Below are positions 18,423 to 32,148 of a stretch of 64,000 nt of DNA, piece by piece; position 1 is the stretch's first letter; each line of letters begins with the position of its first letter. Origin of the DNA: Escherichia coli (GTDB taxonomy: Bacteria; Pseudomonadota; Gammaproteobacteria; Enterobacterales; Enterobacteriaceae); the NCBI RefSeq assembly GCF_013315695.1, contig NZ_CP054353.1; one strand, written 5' to 3'. Under the pieces are notes generated by a model. It saw only the letters and a program-made list of their open reading frames with translations, searched no databases and was not told the origin of the DNA. The position numbers and the translations under genes were made by a program.

Positions 18423-18758
18423 ATGCCCGCTAATGCTCGCTCTCACGCTGTACTGACCACTGAATCAAAGGTCACGATACGCGGACAAACAACTATCCCC
18501 GCGCCAGTGCGTGAGGCCTTAAAACTGAAGCCAGGCCTGGACAGCATTCATTACGAAATTCTGCCTGGTGGGCAAGTATTTATGTGCCGACTGGGAGATG
18601 AACAGGAGGATCATACTATGAATGCATTTTTGCGTTTTCTGGATGCAGATATCCAGAACAACCCGCAAATAACTCGTCCATTCAACATTCAACAAGGAAA
18701 GAAACTTGTCGCAGGCATGGACGTCAACATTGATGATGAGATTGGCGACGACGAATAA
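18423..18758 (+). CDS. prlF: type II antitoxin PrlF (SohA)
   Basis: 111-aa ORF MPANARSHAVLTTESKVTIRGQTTIPAPVREALKL... (AbrB/SpoVT-like swapped-hairpin N-terminus), immediately upstream of yhaV. Confidence 0.88.
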   Translation: MPANARSHAVLTTESKVTIRGQTTIPAPVREALKLKPGLDSIHYEILPGGQVFMCRLGDEQEDHTMNAFLRFLDADIQNNPQITRPFNIQQGKKLVAGMDVNIDDEIGDDE

Positions 18759-19222
18759 TGGATTTTCCACAAAGGGTTAATGGTTGGGCGCTATATGCTC
18801 ATCCCTGTTTTCAGGAAACCTACGACGCTTTAGTTGCCGAAGTTGAGACATTAAAGGGAAAAGATCCTGAAAATTATCAGAGAAAAGCCGCCACAAAGTT
18901 ATTGGCGGTAGTCCATAAAGTGATTGAGGAGCATATCACGGTCAATCCATCATCACCGGCATTCCGTCATGGCAAGTCGTTAGGCTCTGGGAAAAATAAA
19001 GACTGGTCACGGGTAAAATTTGGTGCTGGTCGTTATCGTCTCTTCTTTCGTTATAGTGAAAAAGAGAAAGTCATCATTCTGGGATGGATGAACGATGAAA
19101 ACACTCTGCGCACCTACGGTAAAAAAACAGATGCCTATACCGTATTCAGCAAAATGTTAAAAAGAGGACATCCTCCTGCCGACTGGGAAACCCTCACCCG
19201 AGAGACAGAAGAAACCCATTGA
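18758..19222 (+). CDS. yhaV: type II toxin YhaV (ribonuclease)
   Basis: 154-aa ORF MDFPQRVNGWALYAHPCFQETYDAL...; start overlaps prlF stop by 1 nt (ATGA). Confidence 0.88.
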   Translation: MDFPQRVNGWALYAHPCFQETYDALVAEVETLKGKDPENYQRKAATKLLAVVHKVIEEHITVNPSSPAFRHGKSLGSGKNKDWSRVKFGAGRYRLFFRYSEKEKVIILGWMNDENTLRTYGKKTDAYTVFSKMLKRGHPPADWETLTRETEETH

Positions 19223-19276
19223 TGGTGTTCACAATGCCCGCCGAACGCATTCGTGTTGACCAGCGGGCACCCTTTC

Positions 19277-20086
19277 TCACTCCCCGACCAGAATCACTTC
19301 AACCCCAGCCTTTCGCAGTCCTTCCAGACTATCCGCAGGAATGCCTTCATCAACAATGATCATGTCGATACGTTGAGTATCAATGATCTTATGTAAACTG
19401 GAACGGTTGAACTTACTGGAATCGGTGACCACGATGATCCGTTCCGCAACTTCGCACATCCGACGGTTTAAACGGGCTTCATCTTCATTATGCGTGCTGA
19501 CGCCGCGCTCCAGATCGATCGCATCTACGCCAAGAAACAGCATATCGAAGTGGTAATTTTGCAGCGATTGTTCAGCCTGATCGCCGTAAAAAGATTGCGA
19601 CTGACGGCGCAAATGCCCGCCGGTCATCAGCAGCTCAACGCCTTCCGCTTCCAGCAACGCATTAGCCACGTTCATACCGTTGGTCATCGCAATTACGTCA
19701 GTGTGCTTGCGCATCAGACGAGCAATCTCAAAAGTGGTGGTCCCGGAATCGAGGATTACCCGATGACCTGGCTGAATCAACTCAACGGCAGCTTTCGCAA
19801 CGCTGCGTTTCATTGCGGTGTTCAGCGCGCTTTTATCTTCCACTGATGGCTCGACTGACGGCGTCGTGCTATCGCAGATCAACGCGCCGCCATAGGCACG
19901 CACAGCGATCCCCTGCTTTTCCAGAAACGCCAGATCGTTGCGGATCGTCACAGTAGATACACCATACAACGCCGATAGATCATTAACTTGCACACTTCCT
20001 TGCTGGCGCAGGCGTTGAATAATCTGCTCTCGTCGCTCACTGGTGCCTGTCACTCGCTTCTCGCCTGAAGCGTCGGTATTACTCAT
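19277..20086 (-). CDS. agaR: DeoR-family repressor AgaR of the aga regulon
   Basis: 269-aa ORF with N-terminal HTH ([39 protein letters not shown]) and DeoR C-terminal domain. Confidence 0.9.
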
Positions 20087-20099
20087 AGTAAGTCCTTTC

Positions 20100-20305
20100 G
20101 TAAAACTTTCGTTTCATTTCGTTTTGCCTATTAACGCCTTTCTATTAAGCAAATGCAAGCCCACCTTACCCATTGGCGCAAGCTACTCTCGTTTCAGTGG
20201 CTTTCATTATGTTTCTTTTGTGAATCAGATCAGAAAACCATTATCTTTCGTTTTATTTTTATCTCACCATGGCGCAGTATCAACTGAAACAAAACGAAAG
20301 ATTAA
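20100..20305. promoter_or_regulatory. agaR/kbaZ divergent control region with repeated AgaR operator-like motifs
   Basis: CTTTCGTTTCATTTCGTTTTG (20106..20126), TTATCTTTCGTTTTATTTT (20241..20259) and inverted GAAACAAAACGAAAG (20286..20300). Confidence 0.6.
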
Positions 20306-20334
20306 TATCGCAGTAATCTGAACTGGAGAGGAAA

Positions 20335-21615
20335 GTGAAACATCTGACAGAAATGGTGAGACAGCACAAAGAGGGCAAAACAAATGGGATTTATGCCGTT
20401 TGTTCCGCACATCCGCTGGTGCTGGAAGCTGCAATCCGCTACGCCAGTGCAAACCAAACGCCGTTACTGATTGAAGCAACCTCCAATCAGGTGGACCAGT
20501 TCGGCGGTTATACCGGAATGACGCCCGCCGATTTTCGCGGCTTTGTTTGTCAGCTCGCCGACTCGTTGAATTTCCCACAGGATGCGTTGATTCTGGGTGG
20601 CGACCATCTGGGGCCAAACCGCTGGCAAAACCTGCCTGCCGCTCAGGCAATGGCCAATGCCGATGATTTGATTAAAAGCTACGTGGCGGCAGGATTCAAA
20701 AAAATTCACCTTGATTGCAGCATGTCCTGTCAGGACGATCCGATTCCCTTAACTGATGACATCGTGGCCGAACGCGCCGCTCGTCTGGCGAAAGTGGCGG
20801 AAGAAACCTGCCGTGAACATTTTGGCGCGGCCGATCTGGAGTATGTCATTGGTACCGAAGTACCGGTACCTGGCGGCGCGCATGAAACCTTAAGCGAGCT
20901 GGCGGTCACCACGCCGGATGCCGCCCGCGCCACGCTGGAAGCCCATCGTCACGCCTTTGAAAAGCAAGGTCTGAGTGCCATCTGGCCACGCATCATTGCT
21001 CTGGTGGTACAACCCGGCGTCGAATTCGATCACACCAACGTTATTGATTATCAGCCCGTCAAAGCGACCGCCTTAAGCCAGATGGTCGAAAACTACGAAA
21101 CGCTGATTTTCGAAGCGCACTCTACCGATTACCAAACGCCGCAATCGCTGCGCCAGCTGGTGATTGACCACTTTGCCATTCTGAAAGTTGGCCCGGCGCT
21201 GACCTTCGCCCTGCGTGAAGCTCTGTTCTCTCTGGCGGCGATTGAAGAAGAACTGGTACCAGCAAAAGCCTGTTCTGGTCTGCGTCAGGTGCTGGAAAAC
21301 GTGATGCTCGACCGCCCGGAATACTGGCAAAGCCACTACCACGGTGACGGCAACGCGCGTCGTCTGGCGCGTGGTTATAGCTACTCGGATCGCGTGCGCT
21401 ATTACTGGCCGGACAGCCAGATTGATGACGCTTTCGCTCATCTGGTTCGTAATCTGGCGGATTCACCAATTCCGCTACCGCTGATCAGCCAGTATTTGCC
21501 GCTGCAGTACGTGAAAGTTCGCTCCGGCGAGCTGCAGCCAACGCCACGGGAACTCATTATCAACCATATTCAGGACATCCTGGCGCAGTACCACACAGCC
21601 TGTGAAGGCCAATAA
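20335..21615 (+). CDS. kbaZ: tagatose-1,6-bisphosphate aldolase non-catalytic subunit KbaZ (AgaZ)
   Basis: 426-aa ORF from [39 protein letters not shown]... Confidence 0.9.
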
Positions 21616-21637
21616 GCAAAACAAAGAGGAACACGCT

Positions 21638-22111
21638 ATGCCAAATATTGTTTTAAGTCGGATTGATGAACGCTTGATTCACGGTCAGGTCGGCGTTCAG
21701 TGGGTCGGATTTGCGGGGGCAAATCTGGTGCTGGTAGCCAACGACGAGGTTGCCGAAGATCCGGTACAACAAAACCTGATGGAAATGGTACTGGCAGAAG
21801 GGATCGCCGTACGTTTCTGGACGCTGCAAAAAGTCATCGACAACATTCATCGCGCCGCCGATCGACAGAAAATCCTGCTGGTTTGTAAAACACCTGCCGA
21901 TTTCCTGACGCTGGTGAAAGGTGGCGTTCCGGTGAATCGCATTAACGTTGGCAATATGCACTACGCCAATGGCAAGCAACAAATCGCCAAAACGGTTTCT
22001 GTGGATGCGGGTGATATCGCAGCATTTAACGACCTGAAAGCCGCTGGGGTGGAATGCTTCGTTCAGGGCGTCCCGACAGAGCCTGCTGTGGACCTCTTTA
22101 AATTACTTTGA
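21638..22111 (+). CDS. agaV: N-acetylgalactosamine PTS EIIB component AgaV
   Basis: ORF 21602..22111; start taken at MPNIVLSRIDERLIHGQVGVQWVG (157 aa), mannose-family IIB. Confidence 0.9.
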   Translation: MPNIVLSRIDERLIHGQVGVQWVGFAGANLVLVANDEVAEDPVQQNLMEMVLAEGIAVRFWTLQKVIDNIHRAADRQKILLVCKTPADFLTLVKGGVPVNRINVGNMHYANGKQQIAKTVSVDAGDIAAFNDLKAAGVECFVQGVPTEPAVDLFKLL

Positions 22112-22121
22112 GGGATTCATC

Positions 22122-22901
22122 ATGGAAATCAGTCTGTTGCAGGCATTCGCGTTGGGCATTATCGCCTTTATCGCTGGCCTGGATATGTTTAACGGCCTAA
22201 CCCATATGCACCGCCCGGTGGTCCTCGGCCCGTTGGTCGGACTGGTACTTGGCGATCTGCATACCGGTATTTTAACCGGCGGTACGCTGGAACTGGTGTG
22301 GATGGGGCTGGCCCCGCTGGCGGGCGCACAGCCGCCTAACGTGATTATCGGTACTATCGTCGGCACGGCGTTTGCCATTACTACTGGCGTGAAACCCGAT
22401 GTCGCGGTCGGTGTCGCCGTACCTTTCGCTGTCGCAGTACAGATGGGGATTACCTTCCTGTTCTCGGTGATGTCCGGCGTGATGTCCCGCTGCGACCGGA
22501 TGGCGGAGAACGCCGATACACGCGGCATTGAACGCGTGAACTATCTGGCACTGCTGGCACTCGGCACGTTCTATTTTCTCTGCGCTTTCCTGCCTATCTA
22601 CTTCGGCGCAGAACATGCAAAAACCATCATTGATGTCCTGCCGCAACGATTAATCGACGGCCTCGGCGTCGCGGGCGGCATCATGCCAGCAATCGGTTTT
22701 GCCGTGTTGCTGAAAATCATGATGAAAAACGTCTACATCCCCTACTTCATCCTGGGCTTTGTTGCCGCAGCCTGGCTCAAGTTACCGGTGTTGGCTATTG
22801 CTGCCGCTGCGCTGGCGATGGCGCTGATCGACTTGCTGCGTAAATCTCCTGAACCGACTCAACCTGCGGCACAGAAAGAGGAATTTGAAGATGGCATCTA
22901 A
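22122..22901 (+). CDS. agaW: N-acetylgalactosamine PTS EIIC component AgaW, full length
   Basis: 259-aa membrane ORF MEISLLQAFALGIIAFIAGLDMFNG...; K-12 has only a truncated remnant. Confidence 0.88.
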   Translation: MEISLLQAFALGIIAFIAGLDMFNGLTHMHRPVVLGPLVGLVLGDLHTGILTGGTLELVWMGLAPLAGAQPPNVIIGTIVGTAFAITTGVKPDVAVGVAVPFAVAVQMGITFLFSVMSGVMSRCDRMAENADTRGIERVNYLALLALGTFYFLCAFLPIYFGAEHAKTIIDVLPQRLIDGLGVAGGIMPAIGFAVLLKIMMKNVYIPYFILGFVAAAWLKLPVLAIAAAALAMALIDLLRKSPEPTQPAAQKEEFEDGI

Positions 22902-23769
22902 TCAAACTACCCTGCCGAACGTCAGTGAAAACGAAGAAACACTGCTGACTGGCGTCAATGAAAACGTGTATGAAGATCAGAGTATTGGCGCGGAGCTGAC
23001 GAAAAAAGATATCAACCGCGTCGCCTGGCGTTCCATGCTGTTACAAGCGTCTTTTAACTACGAACGTATGCAGGCTTCCGGCTGGTTGTACGGTCTGCTG
23101 CCTGCTCTGAAAAAGATCCACACTAATAAACGCGACCTGGCGCGCGCCATGAAGGGGCATATGGGTTTCTTCAATACCCATCCGTTTCTGGTGACGTTTG
23201 TTATCGGCATTATCCTTGCGATGGAGCGTTCTAAGCAGGACGTTAACAGTATTCAGAGCACCAAAATTGCCGTCGGTGCGCCGCTCGGCGGGATTGGCGA
23301 TGCGATGTTCTGGCTAACGCTACTGCCGATTTGTGGCGGGATAGGCGCAAGCCTCGCGCTACAAAGCTCTATTCTTGGCGCAGTCGTCTTTATTGTGCTG
23401 TTCAACGTGGCGCATCTCGGTTTGCGTTTTGGTCTTGCACATTATGCTTACCGCATGGGCGTGGCGGCGATTCCACTCATTAAAGCAAATACCAAAAAAG
23501 TCGGCCATGCGGCATCTATCGTTGGGATGACGGTAATCGGCGCGCTGGTGGCAACCTATGTTCGTTTAAGCACCACGCTGGAAATCACAGCGGGCGACGC
23601 AGTGGTTAAGTTACAGGCTGATGTTATCGACAAACTGATGCCTGCCTTCTTACCACTGGTCTACACCCTGACCATGTTCTGGCTGGTACGCCGCGGCTGG
23701 AGTCCGCTGCGCCTGATTGCGATTACCGTGGTTCTCGGCATCGTCGGTAAATTCTGCCATTTCCTTTAA
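22885..23769 (+). CDS. agaE: N-acetylgalactosamine PTS EIID component AgaE
   Basis: 294-aa membrane ORF, mannose-family IID; overlaps agaW stop; absent from K-12. Confidence 0.85.
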   Translation: MKMASNQTTLPNVSENEETLLTGVNENVYEDQSIGAELTKKDINRVAWRSMLLQASFNYERMQASGWLYGLLPALKKIHTNKRDLARAMKGHMGFFNTHPFLVTFVIGIILAMERSKQDVNSIQSTKIAVGAPLGGIGDAMFWLTLLPICGGIGASLALQSSILGAVVFIVLFNVAHLGLRFGLAHYAYRMGVAAIPLIKANTKKVGHAASIVGMTVIGALVATYVRLSTTLEITAGDAVVKLQADVIDKLMPAFLPLVYTLTMFWLVRRGWSPLRLIAITVVLGIVGKFCHFL

Positions 23770-23786
23770 ATACAATGAGGTATTAG

Positions 23787-24221
23787 ATGTTAAGTATTAT
23801 TTTGACAGGGCATGGCGGATTTGCCAGCGGCATGGAAAAAGCAATGAAGCAAATTCTCGGTGAGCAATCGCAGTTTATCGCCATCGATTTTCCGGAAACC
23901 TCAAGCACCGCGCTGCTTACATCGCAGCTTGAAGAGGCCATCGTCCAACTGGATTGTGAAGACGGCATTGTTTTTCTGACGGATTTGCTGGGCGGCACGC
24001 CGTTTCGCGTAGCTTCAACGCTGGCGATGCAAAAACCGGGCTGTGAAGTGATCACCGGCACCAATTTGCAACTGCTACTGGAGATGGTGCTGGAGCGCGA
24101 AGGGTTAAGCGGTGAAGAGTTCCGTGTGCAGGCGCTGGAGTGTGGACACCGTGGGCTGACCAGTCTGGTGGACGAGTTAGGCCGCTGCCATGAAGAATGT
24201 CCGGTCGAGGAAGGAATATGA
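23787..24221 (+). CDS. agaF: PTS EIIA component AgaF
   Basis: 144-aa ORF MLSIILTGHGGFASGMEKAMKQILGEQ..., mannose-family IIA with His in TGHGGFA context. Confidence 0.85.
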   Translation: MLSIILTGHGGFASGMEKAMKQILGEQSQFIAIDFPETSSTALLTSQLEEAIVQLDCEDGIVFLTDLLGGTPFRVASTLAMQKPGCEVITGTNLQLLLEMVLEREGLSGEEFRVQALECGHRGLTSLVDELGRCHEECPVEEGI

Positions 24222-25351
24222 CACACGTTCTGCGCGCCAGAAGGCTGCTGACTGAAGAGGGATGGCTCGATGACCATCAGTTGCGTATTGCTGACGGTGT
24301 AATCGCAGCAATCGAACCGATTCCAGTGGGCGTGACTGAACGCGATGCGGAACTGCTCTGCCCCGCTTACATCGACACCCATGTACACGGTGGTGCGGGC
24401 GTTGATGTAATGGATGACGCGCCGGATGCGCTCGACAAGCTGGCAATGCACAAGGCACGCGAAGGTGTCGGCAGTTGGTTACCGACCACCGTAACCGCGC
24501 CGCTTAATACCATTCATGCGGCGCTGAAACGTATTGCTCTACGCTGCCAGCGTGGCGGACCTGGTGCGCAAGTGCTGGGGAGTTATCTCGAAGGACCGTA
24601 CTTCACGCCGCAGAATAAAGGCGCGCATCCGCCGGAGCTGTTTCGCGAGCTGGAAATTGCCGAGCTGGATCAATTGATTGCCGTTTCTCAGCACACCTTG
24701 CGCGTGGTAGCGCTGGCACCAGAAAAAGAAGGGGCATTGCAGGCCATCCGCCATCTTAAACAGCAAAACGTACGGGTGATGCTGGGGCATAGCGCGGCGA
24801 CCTGGCAACAAACCCGTGCCGCGTTTGACGCTGGTGCCGACGGCCTGGTGCATTGCTATAACGGGATGACAGGTTTACATCACCGCGAACCGGGAATGGT
24901 TGGCGCGGGATTAACGGACAAGCGCGCCTGGCTGGAACTGATAGCCGATGGTCATCATGTACATCCGGCGGCGATGTCGCTGTGTTGTTGCTGTGCGAAA
25001 GAGAGAATCGTGCTGATCACCGACGCGATGCAGGCAGCCGGGATGCCGGATGGTCGCTATACGTTATGTGGTGAAGAAGTGCAGATGCACGATGGCGTTG
25101 TCCGTACCGCGTCCGGTGGGCTGGCGGGCAGTACGCTGTCTGTCGATGCGGCAGTGCGCAACATGGTCGAGTTGACGGGCGTAACGCCTGCGGAAGCCAT
25201 CCATATGGCATCGCTGCATCCGGCGCGTATGCTGGGTGTTGATGGTGTTCTGGGATCGCTTAAACCGGGCAAACGCGCCAGCGTCGTTGCGCTGGATAGC
25301 GGGCTGCATGTGCAACAAATCTGGATTCAGGGTCAATTAGCTTCGTTTTGA
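24218..25351 (+). CDS. agaA: N-acetylgalactosamine-6-phosphate deacetylase AgaA, full length
   Basis: ORF 24197..25351; start taken at MTHVLRARRLLTEEGW; NagA-like amidohydrolase with HxH motif (DTHVHGGAG). Confidence 0.88.
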   Translation: MTHVLRARRLLTEEGWLDDHQLRIADGVIAAIEPIPVGVTERDAELLCPAYIDTHVHGGAGVDVMDDAPDALDKLAMHKAREGVGSWLPTTVTAPLNTIHAALKRIALRCQRGGPGAQVLGSYLEGPYFTPQNKGAHPPELFRELEIAELDQLIAVSQHTLRVVALAPEKEGALQAIRHLKQQNVRVMLGHSAATWQQTRAAFDAGADGLVHCYNGMTGLHHREPGMVGAGLTDKRAWLELIADGHHVHPAAMSLCCCCAKERIVLITDAMQAAGMPDGRYTLCGEEVQMHDGVVRTASGGLAGSTLSVDAAVRNMVELTGVTPAEAIHMASLHPARMLGVDGVLGSLKPGKRASVVALDSGLHVQQIWIQGQLASF

Positions 25352-25369
25352 TGGTTTGCTCCTTTATTG

Positions 25370-25402
25370 GGCCTTCACTTCCCCCGTAAGGCCTTTTTTT
25401 TT
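25370..25402 (+). terminator. possible rho-independent terminator after agaA
   Basis: GGCCTT ... AAGGCC inverted repeat followed by T9 run. Confidence 0.45.
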
Positions 25403-25577
25403 CTTTCTTTTTGATCTGTGCAGCGGTGTCGGATGCGACGCTGACGCGTCTTCTTCGACCTACGGTACGCCGCATCCGGCAATCGGTGAACATAGCGACG
25501 TTATCACGCAATCCTTTAATCTTCCCTTGTCTTTTCTTTCAATGATCACAAATTTCGTTTTATTTCTTTTTTCTCCA

Positions 25578-25660
25578 TTGAACTTTCAGTTTCTTTTCTA
25601 TAGATTTTAATCAACGAAAGACATCACCAAGTGAAATGAAACGAAAGGTAAGCGAAAGCG
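25578..25660. promoter_or_regulatory. agaS promoter region with AgaR operator-like motifs
   Basis: AACTTTCAGTTTCTTTTC and GAAATGAAACGAAAGG resemble the motifs upstream of kbaZ/agaR. Confidence 0.5.
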
Positions 25661-25701
25661 ACAACGCCCGACGCCAAGTTCATCAGACTAAGGATTGAGT
25701 T

Positions 25702-26856
25702 ATGCCAGAAAATTACACCCCTGCTGCCGCTGCAACCGGTACATGGACTGAAGAAGAGATCCGCCATCAGCCTCGCGCATGGATCCGTTCACTCACCAAC
25801 ATCGACGCGCTACGTTCCGCGCTCAATAACTTCCTTGAACCGTTACTGCGCAAAGAGAATCTGCGGGTAATCCTGACCGGAGCCGGAACCTCGGCATTTA
25901 TCGGTGATATCATCGCGCCGTGGCTCGCCAGCCATACCGGTAAAAACTTCAGCGCCGTACCGACCACCGATCTGGTCACTAATCCGATGGACTACCTGAA
26001 TCCAGCTCATCCGCTACTGTTGATCTCCTTCGGTCGATCCGGCAACAGCCCGGAAAGCGTCGCCGCCGTGGAACTGGCGAATCAGTTTGTACCGGAATGC
26101 TATCACCTGCCGATCACCTGCAACGAAGCGGGCGCTCTTTACCAAAACGCGATCAACAGCGACAACGCGTTTGCCCTGCTGATGCCCGCAGAAACGCACG
26201 ATCGCGGCTTTGCGATGACCAGCAGCATTACCACCATGATGGCCAGCTGCCTCGCGGTTTTCGCACCTGAGACGATCAACAGCCAAACCTTCCGCGATGT
26301 GGCAGATCGTTGCCAGGAAATCCTGACCTCACTGGGCGATTTCAGTGAAGGTGTGTTTGGTTACGCACCGTGGAAACGGATCGTTTATCTCGGCAGCGGT
26401 GGCTTACAGGGCGCAGCACGCGAGTCGGCGCTGAAAGTACTGGAACTGACAGCGGGTAAACTGGCGGCCTTTTATGATTCCCCGACCGGATTCCGTCATG
26501 GACCAAAATCGCTGGTCGATAACGAAACGCTGGTGGTGGTATTTGTCTCCAGCCACCCTTACACCCGTCAGTATGATCTTGATCTGCTGGCAGAACTCCG
26601 CCGCGATAACCAGGCATTGCGCGTAATCGCCATCGCCGCAGAAAGCAACGACGTTATTACCGCCGGTCCACATATCATCCTGCCGCCGTCCCGTCACTTT
26701 ATCGACGTTGAGCAGGCATTTTGCTTCCTGATGTACGCCCAGACGTTTGCACTGATGCAGTCGCTGCACATGGGCAATACGCCGGATACCCCATCAGCCA
26801 GTGGCACCGTTAACCGCGTGGTGCAAGGCGTAATCATTCATCCGTGGCAGGCATAA
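25702..26856 (+). CDS. agaS: SIS-domain galactosamine-6-phosphate deaminase/isomerase AgaS
   Basis: 384-aa ORF MPENYTPAAAATGTWTEEEIRHQPRAW... Confidence 0.9.
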   Translation: MPENYTPAAAATGTWTEEEIRHQPRAWIRSLTNIDALRSALNNFLEPLLRKENLRVILTGAGTSAFIGDIIAPWLASHTGKNFSAVPTTDLVTNPMDYLNPAHPLLLISFGRSGNSPESVAAVELANQFVPECYHLPITCNEAGALYQNAINSDNAFALLMPAETHDRGFAMTSSITTMMASCLAVFAPETINSQTFRDVADRCQEILTSLGDFSEGVFGYAPWKRIVYLGSGGLQGAARESALKVLELTAGKLAAFYDSPTGFRHGPKSLVDNETLVVVFVSSHPYTRQYDLDLLAELRRDNQALRVIAIAAESNDVITAGPHIILPPSRHFIDVEQAFCFLMYAQTFALMQSLHMGNTPDTPSASGTVNRVVQGVIIHPWQA

Positions 26857-27729
<873 letters not shown>

Positions 27730-27880
27730 TCATTAGTTTTTTATGATTTATCCCAATGTACTTCCCGATTAATATCGGGGAGTGCCTTAATGGAAAAGGA
27801 GATAACTAAACCTTAATAAATACATCAGTAAAATATCGCAACAATAATATATTTTAAAAAATTATGGTAATGACTCCAAC

Positions 27881-28384
27881 TTATTGATAGTGTTTTATGT
27901 TCAGATAATGCCCGATGACTTTGTCATGCAGCTCCACCGATTTTGAGAACGACAGCGACTTCCGTCCCAGCCGTGCCAGGTGCTGCCTCAGATTCAGGTT
28001 ATGCCGCTCAATTCGCTGCGTATATCGCTTGCTGATTACGTGCAGCTTTCCCTTCAGGCGGGATTCATACAGCGGCCAGCCATCCGTCATCCATATCACC
28101 ACGTCAAAGGGTGACAGCAGGCTCATAAGACGCCCCAGCGTCGCCATAGTGCGTTCACCGAATACGTGCGCAACAACCGTCTTCCGGAGCCTGTCATACG
28201 CGTAAAACAGCCAGCGCTGGCGCGATTTAGCCCCGACATAGCCCCACTGTTCGTCCATTTCCGCGCAGACGATGACGTCACTGCCCGGCTGTATGCGCGA
28301 GGTTACCGACTGCGGCCTGAGTTTTTTAAGTGACGTAAAATCGTGTTGAGGCCAACGCCCATAATGCGGGCTGTTGCCCGGCAT
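27881..28384 (-). CDS. insB: IS1 InsB
   Basis: 167-aa ORF identical to copy 1 InsB. Confidence 0.93.
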
Positions 28385-28578
28385 CCAACGCCATTCATGG
28401 CCATATCAATGATTTTCTGGTGCGTACCGGGTTGAGAAGCGGTGTAAGTGAACTGCAGTTGCCATGTTTTACGGCAGTGAGAGCAGAGATAGCGCTGATG
28501 TCCGGCGGTGCTTTTGCCGTTACGCACCACCCCGTCAGTAACTGAACAGGAGGGACAGCTGATAGAAACAGAAGCCAC
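28303..28578 (-). CDS. insA: IS1 InsA
   Basis: 91-aa ORF; differs from copy 1 at one residue (CSVTDG vs CSATDG). Confidence 0.93.
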
Positions 28579-28633
28579 TGGAGCACCTCAAAAACACCAT
28601 CATACACTAAATCAGTAAGTTGGCAGCATCACC

Positions 28634-28844
28634 ACAAACGGTACGTAAATTGGTAGAAGGTGGTATTGACCTGAAAGATGTCAACGTCGGCAATATGCAT
28701 TTCTCGGAAGGGAAAAAGCAAATCAGCAGTAAAGTTTATGTCGATGACCAGGATCTCGCGGACTTACGTTTTATTAAACAACGTGGCGTGAATGTTTTCA
28801 TTCAGGACGTCCCTGGCGATCAAAAAGAACAAATCCCTGACTAA
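28634..28844 (+). pseudogene. agaB: agaB (galactosamine PTS EIIB), 5-prime truncated; only about the C-terminal 69 codons remain
   Basis: Frame ...QTVRKLVEGGIDLKDVNVGNMHFSEGKKQISSKVYVDDQDLADLRFIKQRGVNVFIQDVPGDQKEQIPD matches the AgaB C-terminus and begins directly at the IS1 end. Confidence 0.85.
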
Positions 28845-28882
28845 ATCTAAAATCGCCTTAATATTGGTTTGAGGTAATAAAA

Positions 28883-29686
28883 ATGCATGAAATAACCCTA
28901 CTTCAGGGATTATCCCTGGCGGCGTTAGTTTTCGTTCTGGGGATTGATTTTTGGCTGGAAGCCTTATTTTTATTCCGCCCGATAATCGTTTGTACCCTAA
29001 CTGGCGCTATTCTCGGTGATATTCAGACTGGCTTAATTACCGGTGGTCTGACAGAGTTGGCTTTCGCCGGATTAACCCCTGCAGGTGGTGTTCAACCGCC
29101 CAACCCGATTATGGCGGGTCTGATGACCACCGTCATTGCATGGTCTACGGGCGTTGATGCCAAAACGGCAATTGGTCTTGGCCTGCCGTTTAGTTTGTTA
29201 ATGCAGTACGTCATTCTGTTCTTCTATTCCGCTTTCTCATTATTTATGACCAAAGCCGATAAATGCGCAAAAGAGGCGGATACGGCAGCATTTTCCCGAC
29301 TTAACTGGACAACGATGCTCATCGTCGCTTCAGCGTATGCGGTGATTGCTTTCCTCTGTACTTACCTGGCACAAGGGGCGATGCAGGCGCTGGTGAAAGC
29401 GATGCCCGCCTGGCTGACCCACGGCTTTGAAGTGGCTGGCGGTATTCTGCCTGCCGTTGGTTTTGGCTTGCTGCTGCGCGTGATGTTCAAAGCGCAATAT
29501 ATCCCTTACCTGATCGCCGGTTTCCTGTTCGTTTGCTACATCCAGGTCAGCAACCTGTTGCCGGTTGCCGTGCTGGGCGCAGGCTTTGCGGTGTATGAGT
29601 TTTTCAATGCGAAATCCCGGCAGCAAGCGCAACCGCAGCCCGTTGTCAGTAAAAATGAAGAAGAGGACTACAGCAATGGGATCTGA
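28883..29686 (+). CDS. agaC: galactosamine PTS EIIC component AgaC
   Basis: 267-aa membrane ORF MHEITLLQGLSLAALVFVLGIDFW... Confidence 0.9.
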   Translation: MHEITLLQGLSLAALVFVLGIDFWLEALFLFRPIIVCTLTGAILGDIQTGLITGGLTELAFAGLTPAGGVQPPNPIMAGLMTTVIAWSTGVDAKTAIGLGLPFSLLMQYVILFFYSAFSLFMTKADKCAKEADTAAFSRLNWTTMLIVASAYAVIAFLCTYLAQGAMQALVKAMPAWLTHGFEVAGGILPAVGFGLLLRVMFKAQYIPYLIAGFLFVCYIQVSNLLPVAVLGAGFAVYEFFNAKSRQQAQPQPVVSKNEEEDYSNGI

Positions 29687-30467
29687 AATCAGTAAAAAAG
29701 ATATCACCCGTCTGGGCTTTCGTTCGTCACTGCTACAAGCAAGCTTTAACTACGAAAGGATGCAGGCGGGCGGTTTTACCTGGGCGATGTTGCCGATCCT
29801 GAAAAAGATTTATAAGGACGACAAACCGGGCCTAAGCGCGGCGATGAAAGATAACCTCGAATTTATTAATACCCACCCTAATCTGGTCGGATTTCTGATG
29901 GGGTTATTAATTTCGATGGAAGAAAAAGGAGAAAACCGCGACACCATTAAAGGCCTCAAAGTGGCACTGTTTGGCCCAATCGCCGGGATTGGCGATGCGA
30001 TTTTCTGGTTTACCTTATTGCCGATTATGGCGGGAATTTGCTCATCATTTGCCAGCCAGGGAAACCTGTTGGGGCCGATTTTGTTTTTCGCCGTTTACCT
30101 GCTTATCTTCTTCCTGCGCGTCGGCTGGACCCACGTCGGTTATTCAGTCGGCGTGAAGGCGATCGATAAAGTGCGAAAGAACTCGCAGATGATTGCTCGT
30201 TCGGCAACCATCCTCGGGATCACGGTAATCGGCGGGCTGATCGCTTCGTATGTGCATATTAACGTGGTGACATCGTTTGCCATCGACAGTACCCACAGCG
30301 TCGCACTGCAGCAGGATTTCTTCGATAAAGTCTTCCCGAACATTTTACCGATGGCCTACACCCTGCTGATGTATTACTTCCTGCGGGTGAAAAAAGCGCA
30401 TCCGGTGCTGTTAATCGGCGTGACTTTTGTGCTCTCTATTGTTTGTTCCGCATTCGGCATTTTGTAA
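29676..30467 (+). CDS. agaD: galactosamine PTS EIID component AgaD
   Basis: ORF 29565..30467; start taken at MGSEISKKDITRLGFRSSLLQASFNYERMQ (263 aa). Confidence 0.9.
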   Translation: MGSEISKKDITRLGFRSSLLQASFNYERMQAGGFTWAMLPILKKIYKDDKPGLSAAMKDNLEFINTHPNLVGFLMGLLISMEEKGENRDTIKGLKVALFGPIAGIGDAIFWFTLLPIMAGICSSFASQGNLLGPILFFAVYLLIFFLRVGWTHVGYSVGVKAIDKVRKNSQMIARSATILGITVIGGLIASYVHINVVTSFAIDSTHSVALQQDFFDKVFPNILPMAYTLLMYYFLRVKKAHPVLLIGVTFVLSIVCSAFGIL

Positions 30468-31235
30468 ATGGAACGAGGCACTGCGTCTGGCGGTGCCTCT
30501 TTACTTAAGGAATTTCATCCTGTGCAAACCCTTCAACAAGTTGAAAACTATACGGCGTTAAGTGAACGTGCCAGCGAATATTTATTGGCCGTGATCCGTA
30601 GCAAACCGGATGCCGTGATTTGCCTGGCGACCGGAGCCACGCCATTACTGACGTATCATTATTTGGTAGAAAAAATCCACCAGCAGCAGGTTGATGTCAG
30701 CCAGCTTACCTTCGTGAAGCTCGACGAATGGGTGGATCTGCCATTAACGATGCCTGGTACCTGCGAAACTTTCCTACAACAGCATATCGTGCAGCCGCTG
30801 GGGCTGCGTGAAGACCAGCTCATCAGCTTTCGCTCTGAAGAGATAAATGAGACAGAGTGCGAACGGGTAACGAACCTGATTGCGCGCAAAGGCGGTCTGG
30901 ATTTATGCGTTCTCGGATTGGGGAAAAACGGTCATCTTGGGCTGAACGAACCGGGAGAAAACCTGCAACCGGCCTGCCATATCAGTCAACTTGATGCCAG
31001 AACACAGCAACATGAGATGTTAAAAACCGCGGGCCGTCCTGTGACTCGTGGGATCACCTTAGGCCTGAAGGATATTCTCAATGCCCGCGAAGTTTTGTTA
31101 CTGGTGACTGGCGAAGGAAAGCAGGATGCGACAGAACGTTTTCTCACGGCTAAAGTCTCTACCGCTATCCCGGCTTCGTTTTTATGGCTGCATAACTATT
31201 TCACATGCATGATTGATGAGATGTGTCGTCGTTAA
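30468..31235 (+). CDS. agaI: putative galactosamine-6-phosphate deaminase/isomerase AgaI (NagB-like)
   Basis: 255-aa ORF MERGTASGGASLLKEFHPVQTLQQVENY... Confidence 0.88.
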   Translation: MERGTASGGASLLKEFHPVQTLQQVENYTALSERASEYLLAVIRSKPDAVICLATGATPLLTYHYLVEKIHQQQVDVSQLTFVKLDEWVDLPLTMPGTCETFLQQHIVQPLGLREDQLISFRSEEINETECERVTNLIARKGGLDLCVLGLGKNGHLGLNEPGENLQPACHISQLDARTQQHEMLKTAGRPVTRGITLGLKDILNAREVLLLVTGEGKQDATERFLTAKVSTAIPASFLWLHNYFTCMIDEMCRR

Positions 31236-31284
31236 CTCGCCTGCTACAGGCGTTGTAGCGCTATTCCTGCTGCAACGCCTGTAA

Positions 31285-32148
31285 TCACTCCCCCTGCTGC
31301 TCCAGCGCATACTTATACAGCGCGTTTTTTTTCACGCCGTGAATCTCTGCCGCCAGCGCCGCCGCTTTCTTCAGCGGAAGCTCAGCCTGTAACAACGCCA
31401 GCGTGCGCAGGGCATCGGCGGGTAAGTCTTCTTCCTGTGCTTTATGGCCTCCGACAATCAGTACCATTTCGCCTTTGCGACGGTTTTCATCTTCTTTGAC
31501 CCACGCCAGCAGCTCGCCAACGGGCGCGCCGTGAATGGTTTCCCAGGTTTTGGTCAGCTCACGCGCCAGAACGACGTAGCGGGATTCGCCTAATACCGCA
31601 ACGATATCTTCCAGGCTATCTAACAGACGGTGGGTAGATTCATAAAAAATCAGCGTGCGCGGCTCCGCTTCAATGGCTTTTAGCGCATCACGGCGGCCTT
31701 TTGATTTGGCAGGTAAAAAGCCTTCATAACAAAAACGATCGGATGGTAAACCCGCGGCGCTTAACGCAGTGATAGCAGCACACGGCCCGGGTAGCGGCAC
31801 CACGCGAATCCCCGCTTCACGGCAGGTACGCACCAGATGGTAGCCAGGATCGTTAATTAGCGGCGTTCCGGCATCGGAAACCAGCGCAATGTTTTGCCCC
31901 TCTTGCAGCTTCGCCAGCAGCGTTTCGGCTTTTTGTTGTTCGTTATGGTCGTGCAGCGCAAACAACCGAGCATTAATCCCAAAATGTTGCAGCAATAAAC
32001 CGGTGTGACGCGTATCCTCGGCGGCAATCAGATCAACGGCCTGTAATACCTCCAACGCACGCTGGGTGATATCCGCCAGATTGCCGATTGGCGTCGGTAC
32101 AATGTAAAGCTGGCCCTGAGAATTATCCGCCGATTGGTGTTGTTTCAT
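31285..32148 (-). CDS. rsmI: 16S rRNA C1402 2'-O-methyltransferase RsmI (YraL)
   Basis: 287-aa [38 protein letters not shown]... Confidence 0.92.

Follow-up and report, generated by a model that had tools for sequence, protein, structure and literature searches.

GlpR and DeoR of E. coli are DeoR-family repressors that act through several operators per control region, with autoregulation, interplay with CRP and sites lying over the -35 region or the transcription start. Their operators are usually described as palindromic, and bridging between sites is documented for DeoR. For AgaR, sites upstream of the aga genes of Proteobacteria were reportedly derived by comparative genomics (Leyn, Gao, Yang & Rodionov, 2012; J Biol Chem 287:28047).

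As summarized in PMC3668189 and PMC4694137, Ray and Larson (2004; Mol Microbiol 51:813) found that AgaR of E. coli K-12 binds the promoter regions of agaR, kbaZ (agaZ) and agaS. These promoters, which AgaR represses, also carry curated AgaR sites. Three promoters (PR, PZ and PS) are under AgaR control, and PZ and PS are induced by GalNAc (PMC3668189). The aga genes are derepressed when agaR is lost (PMC3668189; PMC9628945), and in E. coli C its loss of function raises expression of the Aga PTS (PMC9628945). The AgaR binding sequence from PkbaZ is listed as CTTTCGTTTCATTTTCGTTT in Table S3 of PMC8667592. The 20-mer at positions 20106-20125 of the DNA analyzed here (CTTTCGTTTCATTTCGTTTT) equals this sequence except for the placement of one T, and AgaR-dependent repression was obtained when that 20-mer, which forms the core of our site O1, was placed at +1 of a synthetic promoter (PMC8667592). 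In addition, genomic SELEX has identified kbaZ as a target of CRP (PMC3105977), and CRP and AgaR sites have been noted in the aga intergenic region (PMC12226905).

The stretch examined here, referred to as the window, is 64,000 nucleotides of E. coli chromosome that carries agaR together with the operons kbaZ-agaVWEFA and agaS-kbaY-agaBCDI. An initial annotation made from the sequence pointed to repeated TTTCGTTT-type motifs in the agaR/kbaZ and agaS control regions. These repeats are present, exceed chance expectation and are conserved in enteric bacteria. We assign a probability of about 0.93 to the reading that the motif blocks are operator sites of AgaR, which is encoded alongside them. 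The multi-site operator architecture that had been proposed for this DeoR-family repressor is supported by an intact cognate agaR gene, by identity with K-12 and by the published binding to three promoters.

The aga locus and its repressor

Gene coordinates were taken from the RefSeq annotation of E. coli strain MSB1_4I, whose chromosome corresponds to window positions 19200-31300 at 100% identity. The agaR gene (19277..20086, minus strand) encodes an intact DeoR-family repressor of 269 aa, as indicated by the annotation, NCBIfam, Pfam and alignment with K-12. Its product scores 577 and 465 bits against two NCBIfam equivalog models, one of which is the AgaR model, and both scores are above the cut-offs. 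Pfam identifies an HTH_DeoR and a DeoRC domain, and the protein is 100% identical to AgaR of K-12. According to the annotation, kbaZ (20335..21615, plus strand) heads the regulated operon kbaZ-agaVWEF-agaA and is followed by agaV, agaW, agaE, agaF and agaA, the last labelled 'nagA'. The second regulated operon, agaS-kbaY-agaBCDI, is headed by agaS (25702..26856, plus strand), downstream of which the annotation places kbaY, IS1A, a partial PTS IIB pseudogene corresponding to the agaB remnant, agaC, agaD and agaI. Directly downstream of agaR is the prlF-yhaV toxin-antitoxin pair (18423-19222), as in K-12.

All operator sites described below fall within two intergenic regions, agaR-kbaZ (20087-20334) and agaA-agaS (25352-25701). 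Compared with K-12 MG1655, the agaR-kbaZ region contains 4 SNPs in 268 bp (99% identity), none of them within the sites, and the site-bearing stretch upstream of agaS (25545-25647) is identical to K-12. Elsewhere in the agaA-agaS region, positions 25450-25520 cannot be aligned with K-12; this segment is upstream of all conserved agaS control elements and has the appearance of a REP/BIME-type palindromic unit of another kind, GCCGCATCCGGCAATCGGTG. A likely intrinsic terminator is located just after agaA at 25369-25402 (GGCCTT stem, 12-nt loop, AAGGCC and nine T residues); it was missed by the terminator scanner because the loop limit of the program is 8. Around this terminator K-12 reads CTTTCGTTTT and the window CTTTCTTTTT. 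Searching complete E. coli genomes with the agaR-kbaZ region returned 5,828 matches. Three of these come from plasmid records, among them NZ_OZ547091.1 (262 kb), which has 94.3% identity to the agaR-kbaZ control region; an aga-like cluster can therefore be plasmid-borne.

Motif copies are concentrated in the two aga control regions

The 64 kb contain eight exact copies of TTTCGTTT, six of them in the two aga control regions and two in the other ∼63 kb. The six copies are at 20107, 20117, 20246 and 25553 on the plus strand and at 20292-20299 and 25639-25646 on the minus strand. Segment 20100-20305 thus contains four exact copies, three direct and one inverted, and not the three (two direct and one inverted) that were originally counted. 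Dinucleotide-preserving shuffles were performed on each intergenic region by itself, 5000 for each. In the agaR-kbaZ region, the four observed copies compare with 0.05 expected and none of the 5000 shuffles reached four, and in the agaA-agaS region two copies were observed against 0.13 expected, a number reached by 38 of 5000 shuffles. The initial annotation had itself raised the prospect that the repeats might be no more alike than AT-rich intergenic DNA in general; examined by these shuffles and by the conservation described below, this did not hold.

The primary AgaR paper reportedly gives a degenerate 24-nt AgaR consensus, WRMMTTTCRTTTYRTTTYNYTTKK. No paper containing this 24-nt string was found in a literature search for it, and searching the literature with the operator sequences themselves brought up nothing beyond unrelated primers and terminators. 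When this consensus was used for a motif search of the window allowing up to three mismatches, five matches were obtained relative to 0.19 expected, all of them in the aga regions. The matches are 20103-20126 (no mismatches), 20198-20221 (two), 20280-20303 on the minus strand (three), 25549-25572 (one) and 25627-25650 on the minus strand (none); a further site at 20242-20265, O3 below, has four mismatches when counted by hand.

A semi-independent test employed a weight matrix constructed only from the O1 orthologues of 69 non-Escherichia species, with which 128,000 window positions were scored. O6, O5, O4 and O3 were the top four non-self matches among the 128,000 positions, and O2 ranked only 10. 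A match of the AgaR matrix at 25390-25413 is spurious because it derives from the T-tail of the agaA terminator. Repeat finding linked the same sites: the 13-mer TTTCGTTTTATTT is common to both regions, being present in O3 and O5; an exact 15-mer is common to O1 and O6; the 26 nt at 20095-20120 are 85% complementary to 25633-25658; and 20243-20258 forms a 16-nt inverted repeat with 20287-20302 (O3/O4, 94%). A segmental duplication between the two promoter regions was considered and rejected, as only motif stretches of 13-26 nt are in common.

Eight conserved sites with fixed spacing

A scan for AgaR in a species-level genome collection yielded 80 Enterobacterales loci with 81-99% protein identity, representing Escherichia, Citrobacter, Klebsiella, Raoultella, Enterobacter, Kluyvera, Salmonella arizonae and diarizonae, Yersinia, Serratia, Buttiauxella, Cedecea, Ewingella, Mixta and Pantoea. 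In all 80 loci kbaZ is divergent from agaR. Alignments of the agaR-kbaZ intergenic region (73 distinct sequences) and of the region upstream of agaS (59 sequences) contain eight conserved islands, designated O1, O1b, O2, O3, O4, O5, O5b and O6. Mean identity to the window is 0.88-0.95 over the sites compared with 0.31 for the spacer at 20160-20200, and information content per matrix position peaks at the C and G of CTTTCG, beyond the T runs. The full operator is approximately 20-24 bp of tandem TTTY-R pentamers with the core CTTTCGTTTYRTTTC and is not palindromic. Four full sites (O1-O4) and the single unit O1b are present in the agaR-kbaZ region, and two full sites (O5 and O6) together with O5b are present upstream of agaS.

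On the agaR side, O1 (20103..20126, plus strand) has its core CTTTCGTTTCATTTCGTTTT and its aligned island at 20106-20125 and averages 93% identity across 72 other species. O1b (20138..20147, plus strand; island coextensive) is a single CTTTCTATTA unit whose CTTTC is almost invariant in the 73 sequences. O2 (20198..20221, plus strand; island 20201-20220) is the AgaR operator-like sequence CTTTCATTATGTTTCTTTTG, the same 20-mer being found in 52 of 73 sequences, and it abuts a candidate CRP site. O3 (20242..20265, plus strand; island 20245-20264), CTTTCGTTTTATTTT, includes an exact TTTCGTTT, is the fifth-ranked matrix match and has 95% mean identity across species. O4 (20280..20303, minus strand; island 20281-20300), the inverted CTTTCGTTTTGTTTCAG, matches the consensus and forms an inverted repeat with O3.

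On the agaS side, O5 (25549..25572, plus strand; island 25552-25571), ATTTCGTTTTATTTCTTTTT, is conserved across the 59 sequences and is the third-ranked matrix match. O5b, CTTTCAGTTTCTTTT (25583..25597, plus strand; island coextensive), reads CTTTCGTTTTC or CTTTCGATTTC in most species. O6 (25627..25650, minus strand; island 25628-25647), the inverted CTTTCGTTTCATTTCACTTG, is conserved and ranks second with the matrix. Two copies had been placed ahead of agaS between 25578 and 25660: the conserved O6 island at 25628-25647 bears this out, but the best upstream site, at 25552-25571, is outside that range, and the copies at 25612-25620 and 25649-25658 within it are Escherichia-specific and not conserved across species. 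The copy at 20186-20194 is likewise not conserved outside Escherichia.

The copy at 25649..25658 (minus strand) is O6b, an extra CTTTCGCTTA unit 11 bp from O6 that is found in the window and in close Escherichia relatives and is absent from other genera. A corresponding extra CTTTCG unit, O1a (20095..20105, plus strand), precedes O1 by 11 bp and belongs to the 26-nt match to the inverted agaS site. Escherichia has an additional CTTTCG unit 10-11 bp before both O1 and O6, which gives the 26-nt match between the regions. O1a is only partially conserved, and this conservation is ambiguous: the unit coincides in part with the agaR Shine-Dalgarno sequence (GAAAGGA) in reverse complement, and that overlap could by itself account for it.

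The distances between sites are also conserved. O2 and O3 are 44 bp apart and O2 and the CRP site 18 bp apart in 73 of 73 sequences; O1 and O1b are separated by 32 bp in 71 of 73, and O3 and O4 by 55 bp in 66 of 73. The O1-O2 distance is 95-98 bp in nearly all sequences despite the unconserved DNA between them. Upstream of agaS, O5 and O6 are 93-95 bp apart in 55 of 59 sequences, and O5b and O6 are 64 bp apart in 44 of 59. The agaR-kbaZ intergenic region measures 248-251 bp in 66 of 74 loci. The outer sites of both regions (O1-O2 and O5-O6) are therefore ∼95 bp apart, or about nine helical turns, with the DNA between O1b and O2 only 31% identical.

It is possible, though we hold it only tentatively and consider it on balance doubtful, that the operators constitute one fixed-geometry AgaR-DNA assembly instead of independent sites. 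The fixed spacing together with O1b and O5b would agree with an oligomer of AgaR spanning several sites, tying autoregulation to the repression of kbaZ and keeping CRP out. Such a fixed-geometry architecture may be undescribed in this detail.

Promoters, CRP and a proposed mechanism

For none of kbaZ, agaR and agaS did a sigma-70 consensus scanner, applied to both control regions, return a plausible promoter on the correct strand; the hexamers are weak. Promoter elements were inferred from conserved hexamers instead, and the positions of sites relative to promoters share this basis. The agaR promoter, on the minus strand, is predicted to consist of -35 TTGCAT (20158-20153) and -10 GTTAAT (20135-20130) with a start near 20123. 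O1 would then extend from about -2 to +18, over the agaR transcription start, and O1b would be located in the promoter spacer.

For kbaZ, the putative -10 is CAGTAT at 20275-20280 and the start would be near 20288. The candidate CRP site for this promoter, TGTGAatcagaTCAGA at 20219..20234, has one mismatch to TGTGA-N6-TCACA. A scan of the window for TGTGA-N6-TCACA, in which 20219-20234 matches 9 of 10 positions, gave four matches relative to 1.96 expected, which is insignificant by itself. In the conserved island a TGTGA-N6-TCAGA sequence directly follows O2 at these positions, and the left half-site and the position of the CRP site are conserved. Relative to the putative kbaZ start, the CRP site would be at -61.5, a value that depends on the predicted -10, with O2 against its upstream edge; O3 would cover the -35 region, and O4, at about -7 to +13, the transcription start.

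The agaS promoter probably comprises -35 TTGAAC (25578-25583) and -10 TAGATT (25601-25606), with a start near 25613. This would place O5 upstream of the -35 at about -62 to -43, O5b in the promoter spacer, and O6 in the agaS leader at about +15 to +34. Directly upstream of O5, GATCACA at 25544-25550 is almost invariant across the 59 species. Like the GATCAGA/GATCGGA at the candidate kbaZ CRP site, this sequence is similar to a right-hand CRP half-site, and it has no conserved left half. The agaS promoter may have half-site CRP input, which would be centered near -71 of the predicted start.

A mechanism consistent with this arrangement is that oligomeric AgaR bound to the sites would obstruct either RNA polymerase or activation by CRP at each of the three promoters, that of agaR itself among them, and that its occupancy would also block early elongation. 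The near-invariant spacing would be compatible with bridging by AgaR between sites. Binding of a GalNAc- or GalN-derived metabolite, a sugar-phosphate, to the C-terminal DeoRC sensor domain would then release AgaR.

Alternative explanations for the repeats

A first alternative, improbable as we judge it to be, is recognition of the sites by a different regulator, either a paralogous DeoR-family repressor (TagR or GatR) or NagC. Predicted TagR operators of E. coli Nissle have CTTTC/GAAAG cores (PMC12226905), making cross-recognition conceivable, and amino-sugar regulons overlap physiologically (PMC3668189). However, the motif and agaR occur together in all 80 loci, beside AgaR-controlled genes, and the 28 nt between the arms of the inverted copies is unlike a single palindromic site. 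In published work the promoters are attributed to AgaR and the O1 20-mer proved responsive when AgaR was titrated (PMC3668189; PMC8667592); GlcNAc does not induce the aga promoters (PMC3668189). Binding by AgaR and derepression upon agaR deletion are moreover reported for K-12 and E. coli C. Slightly less probable still is a mainly structural role in which the T-tracts stimulate the promoters as curved or UP-element-like DNA and are not repressor sites. There are T-rich tracts upstream of and within the promoters, and AgaR at -61 was inferred to stabilize RNA polymerase (PMC8667592), which points to complex promoter-proximal effects. Against this, the C and G of CTTTCG are the most conserved positions, and not the T runs alone; sites are also found downstream of the predicted start points; and the published repression is AgaR-dependent.

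Two further explanations have hardly any probability in our estimate. The similarity could reflect chance in AT-rich intergenic DNA: the GC contents of the agaR-kbaZ and agaA-agaS regions are 0.37 and 0.43, T-rich words also occur in terminator tails such as the matrix match at 25390-25413, and the excess of exact 8-mers in the agaS region is moderate (38/5000). Chance does not account for the agaR-kbaZ count, which none of 5000 local shuffles reached, for five matches to the 24-nt consensus where 0.19 were expected, all in the aga regions, for exact matches of 13 and 15 nt between the two regions, or for site-specific conservation beside a neighboring spacer with 31% identity. Alternatively, O4 and O6 could act in RNA as leader elements, forming a hairpin or a protein-binding purine-rich leader, instead of as DNA operators. 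Both are in the predicted 5' leaders of kbaZ and agaS, and O3 and O4 form the 16-nt inverted repeat. O3, the partner arm of O4, is however upstream of the putative start and would be untranscribed; the motif is present in both orientations upstream of promoters; the predicted leaders fold no better than shuffled sequences (z = -0.16, 0.00 and -0.94); and an Rfam search of 19000-32000 gave no match at E<=1. Within the window, the assignment of the repeats to AgaR is based on identity with K-12, on the statistical excess of the motif and on conservation of the sites and their spacing.

IS1A in agaB and the state of the regulated cluster

IS1A (27866..28633, minus strand; 768 bp) was identified by annotation and alignment with K-12. 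It replaces 296 bp of K-12-type sequence, made up of the first 266 nt of agaB and the 30 bp that precede the gene, and leaves an agaB remnant at 28634-28844. The event is therefore an insertion with an adjacent deletion and not a simple insertion. Its left junction is present in 2 of 5,426 complete E. coli genomes, and the agaR-kbaZ control region in 5,318 of the same 5,426. Because the junction is found in only two genomes, we regard the event as very recent. Lying between kbaY and agaC, IS1A may exert a polar effect on the galactosamine branch (agaCDI).

The genes agaW, agaE, agaF and agaA (22122-25351) are full length in the window strain, which should for this reason be GalNAc-positive, unlike K-12. 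The GalNAc branch (agaVWEF, agaA, agaS, kbaY and kbaZ) is intact, in a better state of preservation than its K-12 counterpart. It had been remarked that the operators are intact even though agaB is damaged. Both halves of this statement were borne out, the first by the comparison with K-12 and the second by IS1A; the oddity that it implies has a trivial explanation, as intact operators are expected given a recent IS1 event and an intact GalNAc branch. We take the IS1 in agaB to mean that the galactosamine transporter branch was lost recently and at the level of the strain, with no mark of regulon decay. The sites, in turn, indicate that this strain retains normal control of GalNAc catabolism by AgaR and, probably, CRP.

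Comparison with known systems

The motifs are the already characterized AgaR operator set, to which the present analysis makes modest additions: eight conserved blocks are mapped across species, three copies confined to E. coli are demoted, and the spacing proves nearly invariant. The K-12 aga regulon has the same locus, the same repressor and the same DNA at every site as the window strain. It is the controlled cluster that differs, and not the operators: agaW and agaA are pseudogenes in K-12 owing to its 2.3-kb deletion, whereas agaW, agaE, agaF and agaA are intact in the window strain, where IS1A has removed the 5' half of agaB. The 80-locus footprint presented here is the same kind of analysis as that of Leyn et al. 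(2012), restricted to Enterobacterales.

AgaR resembles GlpR and DeoR in its HTH_DeoR and DeoRC domains, its several operators, autoregulation and probable interplay with CRP, and in the predicted overlap of its sites with -35 regions and starts. Its sites are tandem direct TTTY-R units in either orientation, unlike the operators of GlpR and DeoR as usually described, and bridging by AgaR is only suggested by the fixed spacing, whereas it is documented for DeoR. The map of eight blocks with fixed spacing could help in studying the recognition of tandem, non-palindromic repeats by an oligomer of the DeoR family. In the tagatose cluster of E. coli Nissle 1917, the DeoR-family repressor TagR is, like AgaR, associated with a divergent regulator/operon intergenic region, with a CRP site just upstream of the -35 and operators with CTTTC/GAAAG cores, one of them over the start (PMC12226905). 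The authors of that study noted the resemblance of the TagR region to the aga region (PMC12226905). The two systems nevertheless differ in repressor, sugar and operator (CTTTCAAAATGAAAGTAAA for TagR), and TagR has only two predicted sites.
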